Assembly (NCBI RefSeq): GCF_003334385.1
Contig: NZ_QOWN01000012.1
Strand: one strand, 5' to 3'
Origin: Escherichia coli
Lineage (GTDB): Bacteria > Pseudomonadota > Gammaproteobacteria > Enterobacterales > Enterobacteriaceae
DNA: 64,000 nt
The position numbers were made by a program, and so were the translations under genes. Shown in pieces: positions 17,793 to 19,631 of this stretch (position 1 is the stretch's first letter; each line of letters starts with the position of its first letter). Under the pieces are notes generated by a model. That model did not search any database and was not told where the DNA came from. It saw only the letters and a program-made list of their open reading frames with translations.

Positions 17793-18455
<663 letters not shown>

Positions 18456-18463
18456 TGGGTATG

Positions 18464-18650
18464 CCTTTGTAGGCCTGATAAGACGCGCCAGCGTCGCATC
18501 AGGCATCGGAGCACAACTGCCGGATTCGGCGTGAACGCCTTATCCGATCTACGGGCCTCGTCCCTGTTGTGATAAAGGCATCAAATCCCAGACATGATAA
18601 GACGCGCCAGCGTCGCATCAGGCGATAAATGCCTGATGCGATAAAGAGAT
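18464..18650. repeat. REP/BIME cluster (at least two REP units)
   Basis: Two copies of gataagacgcgccagcgtcgcatcaggc (18476-18503 and 18596-18623) plus an inverted REP-like unit cggattcggcgtgaacgccttatccg between them; classic REP palindromes. Confidence 0.85.
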
Positions 18651-19631
18651 TTACTCTTCGAGCGAATACGGCAGCGGCTCGATATGCAATGTATTCGCAT
18701 CGTCGCGTACGCGGAAGATGCTATCCGGTTCCATATCGTTATTCATGACGACCTGTACCACGACCTGACCATCTTCCAGTTTTACCGCAGCCAGTACCGT
18801 ACCGGTACGACGCCAGTTCTCGCCCATTTTCAGCTCTAAGTCTTCACCAGCTTCCGGCAGTCGGCTGGCGCTACCTGCCAGCAACCAGAGCGCACGTTTA
18901 TTGGCACCACGGAATTTTGCTCGCGCCACCATCTCTTGTCCGGTATAACAGCCTTTCTTAAAGCTGATACCGCCCAGCGCCTGGAGATTGGTCGCCTGTG
19001 GGATAAACTGCCCGCTGTTGGCGGCATCAATCACCGGGAAACCCGCTTCAATGTTTAATGCCAGCCACTGTTGGCTATTGTTCAGTTCCGCTTCACCGCG
19101 CAGTTTATCGGTCAGCATATTAGCAGTAGCTTCATCGGTTACGATCAGGAAACGTTCTGCCGGGTGTTCAAACCATAGCAAAGTGGTCGCGCCTTCTTTG
19201 ACTACCTGTTTTTCTTTCGAAGGCAGTTCGCTAAAGAGATTTGCCAGCGCGGCGCGCGCCTGAAAACCGGCAACACCAAGCAGCACACGCTCGTCGTCTG
19301 GCGCGATGGTCACTTTAGAGAATACCGCATATTTTTTCAGTTCAGTCAGCTGCGGTTCACGCACGCTGCGCCGTTCAATCCATGCAAAGCCATCGCCGTC
19401 GCGGAACAGACGTAAATTGCTCCACATTTTACCTTTGGCGTCGCAATGGGCGGCGAGCAGGTGCTGATCTTCTGCCATCTGGCTGACATCTGCTGTCACC
19501 TGACCCTGCATATATTTTTCGCTGTCCGCGCCAGTAATGGTGGCAAGCGCCCAGTCATCAAGCGTCATCAGCGTCAGCGGTAAACGGGCAGAAGCCGTAG
19601 GCTGACGGGGAGGAAAAGGTGTAAAAGCCAT
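18651..19631 (-). CDS. ygfZ: Folate-binding tRNA-modifying protein YgfZ, 326 aa
   Basis: [49 protein letters not shown]...; GcvT-like fold; K-12 synteny. Confidence 0.92.

Follow-up and report, generated by a model that had tools for sequence, protein, structure and literature searches.

A REP cluster assigned to the BIME-2 type, with strain-variable copy number, in the convergent trhA–ygfZ spacer of Escherichia coli

Here, we assign the spacer between the convergent genes trhA and ygfZ of Escherichia coli, with near certainty, to the small REP clusters of the BIME-2 type; it reads as Z2, Y and Z2 units followed by the remnant of a REP head. As a whole, the best explanation of the locus, which we hold to be probable, joins this BIME-2 identity to a role of its hairpins at the 3′ ends of the flanking transcripts and to the behavior of repeat DNA. 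The array differs between strains in the number of copies of a 119-bp unit, its two strongest hairpins lie closest to the two stop codons, and its one intact REP foot is an insertion site for IS621.

The window, i.e., the whole 64-kb stretch of DNA that was analyzed, is a K-12-type E. coli sequence and corresponds to the reverse complement of MG1655 near 3.04 Mb. An earlier note on this DNA had placed REPs between the stop codons of yqfA and ygfZ, and the spacer indeed contains the whole cluster. The current name of yqfA is trhA. Because the stop codons lie at 18453-18455 and 18651-18653, the true spacer is 18456-18650, and the interval given in that note, 18464-18650, falls inside it. Read from the trhA side, the spacer consists of 13 nt of unique sequence, REP1 (Z2), a 14-nt head-to-head linker, REP2 (Y), a tail-to-tail linker of 37 to 43 nt, REP3 (Z2), a 7-nt loop, the REP-head remnant, and another 9 unique nt adjoining the ygfZ stop codon (Table 1). 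The RefSeq copy of NC_000913.3 contains no repeat_region features, and a literature search returned no paper that names both yqfA and ygfZ alongside an intergenic region.

Table 1. Positions in the 64-kb window of the genes, repeats, linkers, and predicted hairpins of the trhA–ygfZ locus
Feature	Position	Strand	Description	Hairpin, plus strand (kcal/mol)	Hairpin, minus strand (kcal/mol)
trhA (yqfA)	17796-18455	+	PAQR/hemolysin III family membrane protein; TAA stop codon 18453-18455; from the ORF list and the MG1655 and RefSeq annotation		
Convergent intergenic spacer	18456-18650	both	195 nt; MG1655 3042294-3042488		
REP1, Z2-type	18469-18504	−	36/36 match to the published Z2 sequence GCCTGATGCGACGCTGGCGCGTCTTATCAGGCCTAC (as quoted in PMC11208160); plus-strand GTAG foot 18469-18472	−21.9	−21.4
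IS621 natural target ATCAGGCCTAC, CT core	18469-18479	−	Sole exact copy in the spacer; at the REP1 foot; MG1655 3042465-3042475		
Rfam RF02564 (naRNA4) match	18472-18549	−	75 bits; gathering score 59.5		
Head-to-head linker ATCGGAGCACAACT	18505-18518		14 nt; S-like		
119-bp unit (S linker, Y, linker, Z2)	18505-18623		Absent, single, or double across E. coli genomes		
REP2, Y-type, inverted	18519-18552	+	GCCGGATTCGGCGTGAACGCCTTATCCGATCTAC; 3 mismatches to our Y consensus; CTAC foot 18549-18552	−14.1	−14.5
Tail-to-tail linker	18553-18589		Locus-specific; one place per genome		
REP3, second Z2-type	18590-18623	−	Same orientation as REP1; core 18596-18623 identical to REP1; foot decayed; energies of its own hairpin	−12	−13.2
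Hairpin 2	18613-18641		REP3 right arm and partial REP head	−21.9	−20.3
ygfZ	18651-19631	−	Folate-binding/tRNA-modifying protein gene; stop codon 18651-18653; from the ORF list and the MG1655 and RefSeq annotation		

Several lines of evidence support that the units of the spacer are REPs. First, a pairwise repeat finder returned direct copies of AGGCCTGATAAGACGCGCCAGCGTCGCATCAGGC at 18471-18504 and 18590-18623, with starts 119 nt apart and 94% identity over 34 nt. These are the two near-identical units in the same orientation that the earlier note had described, and the 28-nt core that it quoted is the same in both (18477-18504 and 18596-18623). The inverted REP-like unit that it had seen between them is the Y-type REP2, for which we supplied the Y consensus; this consensus has a single difference from the Y sequence given in PMC11208160. 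Second, the Z2 and Y patterns gave no match in 100 dinucleotide-preserving shuffles of the window, which rules out chance palindromes; in the window itself, REP1 and REP2 are the only Z2 and Y matches at ≤3 mismatches. Third, in addition to the consensus matches, REP1 and REP2 have the GTAG/CTAC foot, and the folds contain a two-base mismatch within the stem, where REPs are expected to have a mismatch. Fourth, the units are extragenic, lying between two stop codons, and multicopy, a 501-nt query having matched a median of 11 places per genome at megablast stringency; 584 REPs per genome have been reported (PMC3333891).

Two elements of the cluster are less complete. REP3 has lost its GTAG foot, where CAGACAT is found, and reads CAGACATGAT where REP1 has GTAGGCCTGAT; it is, therefore, a decayed REP copy. 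A fourth element, overlooked by the earlier note, is a partial REP head at 18631-18641 that is the perfect complement of 18613-18623. According to the repeat finder, CCTGTTGTGATAAAG within the tail-to-tail linker also resembles CCTGATGCGATAAAG at 18632-18646. Tandem Repeats Finder reported nothing in 18400-18700, because only ∼1.3 copies of the 119-bp unit are present, and the repeat finder together with the alignment of alleles was needed to bring out the unit.

In the published classification, BIME-2 elements combine z2 and y REPs in inverted orientation with a short S linker and occur as tandem copies in strain-variable number, their linkers varying in both length and sequence, while BIME-1 elements combine z1 and y REPs with a long L linker (PMC3333891). 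The cluster has the composition of BIME-2, with Z2(−), Y(+), and Z2(−) in alternation, so that the identification as REP/BIME in the earlier note holds. It also has a short S linker, of 14 nt versus 13 nt in the REP325 array and with a TCGG..GCAC core in both, and its tandem copies vary, the 119-bp unit occurring 0, 1, or 2 times in different genomes, with only ∼1.3 units in K-12. With BIME-1 (Y, an L linker with an IHF site, and Z1; also RIP/RIB), the locus shares a Y REP and an inverted Z-class REP. However, the partner is Z2 rather than Z1, and a linker of 14 nt stands where BIME-1 has a long, conserved L motif that contains an IHF site. With no Z1 and no L linker, BIME-1 was rejected.

As a reference, we used the REP325 array of MG1655, which lies between yjdM and yjdN at about 4.3258-4.3264 Mb and consists of 5.8 units of 100 bp, each comprising Z2, AGTCGGCACCGTT, Y, and a 17-nt linker. 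In both arrays, Z2 and Y alternate in orientation and follow the order Z2, short head-to-head linker, Y, tail-to-tail linker. The head-to-head linkers, ATCGGAGCACAACT in the spacer and the 13-nt AGTCGGCACCGTT in REP325, are similar in length and core, the copy number is strain variable as described for BIME-2 (PMC3333891), and the same Rfam model is matched. By contrast, K-12 has ∼1.3 units in the spacer (1 to 3 Z2 copies across strains) and 5.8 units in REP325, and the period is 119 bp rather than 100 bp because the tail-to-tail linker is locus-specific, found in one place per genome, and 37 to 43 nt long instead of 17 nt. Moreover, the Y REP and the foot of the second Z2 are degenerate in the spacer, the flanking genes are convergent rather than co-directional as at REP325, and an additional hairpin is formed by the REP-head remnant at the end of the array.

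The Rfam model shared by the two arrays is that of naRNA4 (RF02564), and of all matches in the 64-kb window, only that at 18472-18549 exceeds the gathering score. The match raises the idea that the Y-S-Z2 unit, which lies downstream of ygfZ in the sense direction, might be processed from the ygfZ strand to a two-hairpin, HU-binding RNA that helps to bridge REP cruciforms in the nucleoid, as described for REP325; HU-mediated condensation needs two hairpins, Y and Z2, and a stable, HU-binding, DNA-condensing RNA has been demonstrated for REP325 RNA only (PMC4550694). Because the naRNA4 model was built on REP325 units, however, it in effect describes a Y-S-Z2 BIME-2 unit and fits any such unit. 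Genuine REP325 units score 95 to 111 bits with this model, and the plus strand of the spacer also scores 47 bits. In addition, the ygfZ transcript must pass hairpin 2 and REP3 to reach the unit, and the unit is missing in ∼62% of strains. A naRNA4-like RNA from this locus, which only the Rfam match suggests, would be very unlikely. Highly improbable, too, is the extended proposal that the 119-bp unit yields a naRNA4-like, HU-binding RNA in an extended ygfZ 3′ UTR, with carrier strains differing in nucleoid contacts or in ygfZ/trhA expression; if this were true, the 37% of strains with the unit would differ in these respects from the 62% without it.

The assignment to BIME-2 is further supported by variation in copy number. 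The population sample comprised 5,426 complete E. coli genomes, in all of which the locus is present; because complete RefSeq genomes are a non-random sample of the species, all frequencies from it are descriptive only. The comparison of REP number across E. coli genomes that the earlier note had proposed revealed steps of 119 bp, with spacers of 76, 195, and 314 nt, and alignment of these alleles showed the difference between them to be precisely the 119-bp unit that the direct Z2 repeats flank. The 76-nt spacer has one Z2 and hairpin 2 and accounts for ∼62% of genomes, including FORC_041 and ST131; the 195-nt spacer is the K-12 form, is that of the window, and accounts for ∼37%; and the 314-nt spacer, found in ETEC1716, has three Z2 and two Y REPs, with the further 119-bp unit in 8 genomes. 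Consistently, the 91-nt Y-plus-linker segment was found in 2,035 of the 5,426 genomes (37.5%), at this locus only, with two copies in 8 genomes. When a spread sample of genomes was measured from flank to flank, two size classes emerged, ∼575 nt with the 76-nt spacer and ∼695 nt with the 195-nt spacer. Since ∼62% of strains have neither the Y REP nor the second Z2, most of the K-12 array is dispensable.

On the simplest view, recombination or slippage between the direct Z2 repeats of 28 to 34 nt would account for both gain and loss of the 119-bp unit. Alternatively, RAYT/TnpA-REP might act on the array, an outcome that would be indistinguishable here from recombination or slippage; in vitro, BIMEs are cut and recombined by TnpA-REP (PMC3333891). 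The age of the unit can be approached through a divergent Escherichia (locus L013) that differs from K-12 by ∼7% in trhA and ygfZ. In its spacer, three Z2 REPs are found together with two Y REPs of consensus quality and the linker seen in K-12, and the units are ∼7 to 9% apart from each other and from K-12. The Y REP is also closer to the consensus in a further locus, L008. From these sequences we infer that the Y-plus-linker unit predates the diversification of E. coli. If so, the 76-nt alleles plausibly arose later, by deletion between Z2 repeats, and the two identical units of ETEC1716 would represent a recent duplication.

The same distribution bears on a possible role of DNA gyrase. Positive supercoiling builds up where genes converge, and the BIME-2 might mainly be bound and cleaved by gyrase, either removing positive supercoils or serving as a strong site independently of transcription. 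The convergent arrangement of trhA and ygfZ and the Z2/Y composition, which is that of BIME-2, fit this idea, and gyrase cleavage sites are over-represented in a BIME-2 subset, with y-type REPs preferred (PMC6379681). However, the reported enrichment concerns a multi-unit BIME-2 subset, of which sucC-sucB and tldD-yhdP are named (PMC6379681), while the spacer has a single Y REP with three mismatches and a weak fold, and ∼62% of genomes are without a Y REP at the locus. Within the portions of the text and supplement text of PMC6379681 that were searched, ygfZ and yqfA are unmentioned. A gyrase site as the main role of the array, suggested by analogy with other BIME-2 elements, appears unlikely.

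For the preferred explanation, in which the array contributes stem-loops at mRNA 3′ ends, the predicted RNA folds are central. The spacer RNA is far more stable than shuffles on each strand (z = −5.5 and −5.0). The strongest two hairpins, REP1 and hairpin 2, are those closest to the stop codons and are present in the minimum-energy folds of either strand; the inner REPs range from −12 to −14.5 kcal/mol. On the trhA side, the foot of REP1 lies 13 nt and its stem 17 nt from the stop codon. On the ygfZ strand, hairpin 2 begins 9 nt past the stop codon; it is formed by the right arm of REP3 (18613-18623) and the partial REP head (18631-18641), with 11 perfect pairs and a 7-nt loop. Hairpin 2 excludes the outer stem of REP3 and displaces it in minimum-energy folds. 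It was found in nine of nine alleles examined; in the 76-nt allele, the sole Z2 REP and hairpin 2 use a common arm and are mutually exclusive. Each E. coli allele examined retains at least one strong hairpin beside each stop codon.

Covariation of the Z2 stem and hairpin 2 across the nine alleles was not significant, the observed score having been reached in 47 of 500 and 105 of 500 shuffles. A few compensatory pairs occur in these alleles (GACGC/GCGTC to GACAC/GTGTC for the inner stem of Z2, and A-U to U-A for hairpin 2), and several of the alleles have uncompensated mismatches. As covariation is without statistical support, we do not count the compensatory pairs as evidence of selection. A terminator scan returned no intrinsic terminator, i.e., a hairpin with a T-run, within 18456-18650 on either strand, and an intrinsic terminator was rejected because no U-tract follows the spacer hairpins.

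The hairpins resemble the REP 3′-end stabilizers and Rho-dependent stem-loops described previously (Newbury et al. 1987; Dar and Sorek 2018, PMC6061677), which are likewise GC-rich, have no U-tract, and lie just past stop codons; at −20 to −22 kcal/mol, the hairpins of the spacer are within the range of terminator hairpins. They differ in that one set of palindromes must serve both strands and in that their 3′-end role is a predicted one. The mRNA-stabilizing and gyrase-binding roles of such an arrangement, which the earlier note had named, are known for the REP family as a whole and would be putative for this spacer. Based on this likeness, we lean, if only slightly, toward the gene-proximal hairpins acting as 3′-end stem-loops for both mRNAs, with REP1 serving the trhA mRNA and hairpin 2 the ygfZ mRNA. 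We suggest that transcription would stop diffusely past the hairpins, via Rho or collision, and that 3′-to-5′ exonucleases would trim the transcripts back as far as the hairpins, leaving a stable 3′ end. The hairpins would also curb read-through into the opposing gene. Stalling of terminating ribosomes, reported for REPs within 15 nt of a stop codon (as cited in PMC12306157), may also apply to hairpin 2 and the foot of REP1. In some other genera, an intrinsic-terminator-like hairpin takes the same position. The intact foot of REP1 is a natural bridge-RNA target of IS621.

The comparison with other genera was based on a scan with TrhA, using one genome per species, which yielded 80 Enterobacterales loci; both genes were within the fetched locus in 71. 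In all 71 of these species, trhA and ygfZ are convergent, with spacers of 6 to 309 nt. In Erwinia, Atlantibacter, and Cedecea, spacers of 26 to 57 nt contain a single GC-rich hairpin, to which the terminator scan gave an intrinsic-terminator score on the ygfZ strand; the hairpin of Phytobacter was not among the terminators called. Thus, three of the four checked genera with short, REP-free spacers have an intrinsic-terminator-like ygfZ hairpin. GTAG-footed REPs of each species' own type were found in the spacer of 22 of the 71 species, with a median spacer length of 93 nt versus 52 nt in the rest; the REP-bearing spacers include those of Citrobacter, Salmonella, Klebsiella, Enterobacter, Kluyvera, Pseudocitrobacter, and Pseudescherichia. 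Unrelated REP families occupy the same spacer in different genera.

This last observation is what would be expected if the REPs were selfish or neutral repeats, deposited and amplified by RAYT/TnpA-REP or by recombination and then tolerated in a convergent spacer, with no locus-specific function beyond that of any hairpin. The polymorphism in presence and copy number, the decayed state of both the REP3 foot and the K-12 Y REP, and the activity of TnpA-REP on BIMEs in vitro (PMC3333891) point in the same direction, as does the much faster divergence of the spacer, relative to its flanks, among E. coli alleles; in one locus (L011), the spacer has 18/76 differences versus 0/456 in trhA and 17/444 in ygfZ. 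However, a purely neutral array does not readily account for the strong hairpins kept beside both stop codons in every E. coli allele examined. Moreover, related REP-free genera retain a terminator hairpin there, so that a hairpin function of some kind seems to be needed at this site. We regard the neutral reading as a whole as rather doubtful; it can hold alongside the best explanation and does not preclude a role of the hairpins as 3′-end stem-loops.

The spacer is also a site of insertion. IS621 belongs to the IS110 family and is mobilized by a bridge-RNA recombinase. Its natural target in REPs is the 11-bp sequence ATCAGGCCTAC or ATCGGGCCTAC with a CT core (PMC11208160). In strain 12867, IS621 interrupts the spacer, with the junctions (marked by a slash) ...CCTTTGTAG/ATACTG... 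and ...ATACAAG/GCCTGATAAG...; these junctions place the insertion at the REP1 foot, and both contain AG, which is the CT core of ATCAGGCCTAC on the other strand. The identical trhA-IS621 junction was found in 111 of the 5,426 genomes, and a query made up of only the two coding flanks found these flanks split in 125 genomes; one split case in a divergent background is also due to IS621. Thus, the IS621 target in REP1 is occupied in ∼2% of sequenced strains (111 to 125 of 5,426). Neither REP2 (ATCCGATCTAC) nor REP3 (ATCATGTCTGG) matches the target, and in the two loci read, neither was seen to contain IS621. Compared with known IS621 target sites in REPs, the exact target and the CT-core insertion are in no way unusual. 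A search of the IS621 insertion tables by gene name and by coordinate gave no hit for the locus.

The earlier note had proposed that the spacer is a potential hotspot for IS or REPtron activity. The IS part of this proposal is confirmed for IS621, although not necessarily as many independent events. The REPtron part does not hold: no RAYT/tnpA-REP or transposase-like gene adjoins the cluster, its neighbors in the ORF list and the MG1655 annotation being trhA and ygfZ, and a REPtron was accordingly rejected.

Altogether, the cluster is an already known kind of element and no departure from what is known. Because REPs, BIME-2 arrays, copy-number polymorphism, and targeting by IS621 are all established, the locus is of little importance beyond its correct annotation. 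It provides a worked example in three respects. First, one and the same spacer has a ygfZ terminator-like hairpin in Erwinia, Atlantibacter, and Cedecea and lineage-specific REPs in Escherichia, Citrobacter, Salmonella, and relatives. Second, the alleles of 76, 195, and 314 nt form a simple three-allele copy-number series. Third, the spacer holds a natural bridge-RNA target for IS621 that is occupied in a small fraction of sequenced strains. The natural alleles of this locus are ready-made isogenic comparisons for the function of REPs.

The genome SCPM-O-B-8794 (L013) is labelled E. coli, and its trhA and ygfZ genes differ from those of K-12 by ~7%. In the 309 nt after the trhA stop, its spacer between the convergent trhA and ygfZ genes contains three REPs of the Z2 type and two Y REPs of consensus quality, and these units have diverged from one another. 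Their mutual divergence indicates that the multi-unit form of the spacer is old. Within the spacer of the window, a 15-nt direct repeat with 87% identity between its copies connects the tail-to-tail linker with the REP-head remnant. The repeat hints that the linker itself arose when the end of the spacer nearest ygfZ was duplicated at an earlier time. In E. albertii (L014), the contig ends 58 nt past the trhA stop, within the left arm of a Z2-like REP that is followed by unrelated sequence; the assembly probably broke here at a repeat or IS.

In other genera, the trhA-ygfZ spacer is 190 nt in Pectobacterium (L076) and 189 nt in Biostraticola (L089). The former contains a long inverted repeat (GTGATAATGGGTAGA...TCTATCCCATTATCAC), which looks MITE-like, and the latter several related hairpins in tandem. 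Both are repeats of other kinds, distinct from the REPs of E. coli type. In the reduced genome of Candidatus Erwinia dacicola (L092), the spacer is only 6 nt long and, therefore, leaves no space for a 3' hairpin between the convergent genes.

In the window, the trhA reading frame contains, within its final 40 nt, a terminator-like hairpin whose tail is T-rich (TGCCACTTTCTGGCG ATCTATTTGT), and the terminator scan also called its equivalent in Erwinia and Atlantibacter. This hairpin probably follows incidentally from conservation of the sequence that encodes the C-terminus. Elsewhere in the window, the genes for 6S RNA and Sib RNA are known K-12 genes in the expected neighbourhood, and the tRNA gene is likewise an ordinary known gene.

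Coordinates of features in the window and, in their own numbering, in the fetched loci
Feature	Location	Strand	Support or sequence
Sib antitoxin RNA	window 3979-4129	-	Rfam, 133.8 bits
6S RNA (ssrS)	window 4778-4961	-	Rfam, 139.8 bits
Terminator-like hairpin	window 18414-18428	+	
15-nt repeat, linker copy	window 18563-18577		CCTGTTGTGATAAAG
15-nt repeat, remnant copy	window 18632-18646		CCTGATGCGATAAAG
tRNA-Gly (CCC)	window 61707-61780	+	ARAGORN and Rfam
IS621	L005 1207-2680		
IS621	L094 3751-5224		
Divergent spacer allele (window 18456-18650 equivalent)	L011 and L012 457-532		
E. albertii contig end	L014 2158-2218		

In loci L005 and L094, IS621, an IS110-family element encoding a bridge-RNA recombinase, interrupts the foot of REP1, the Z2-type REP nearest trhA, at its CT core, at the point equivalent to window 18472/18473. 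The identical junction is present in 111 genomes, and the trhA and ygfZ coding flanks are split in 125, both figures counting genomes rather than insertion events; the cases may be separate insertions or copies of a single one that spread by descent and recombination.

Finally, L011 and L012 carry a hyper-divergent 76-nt allele of the spacer that differs from the common short allele at 18 of 76 positions. In L011, the 456 nt of trhA adjoining the spacer are identical to K-12, and ygfZ is 3.8% different. The divergent spacer is similar to the spacer ends of L013, and this resemblance suggests either a recombination breakpoint in or beside the REP or rapid REP turnover.
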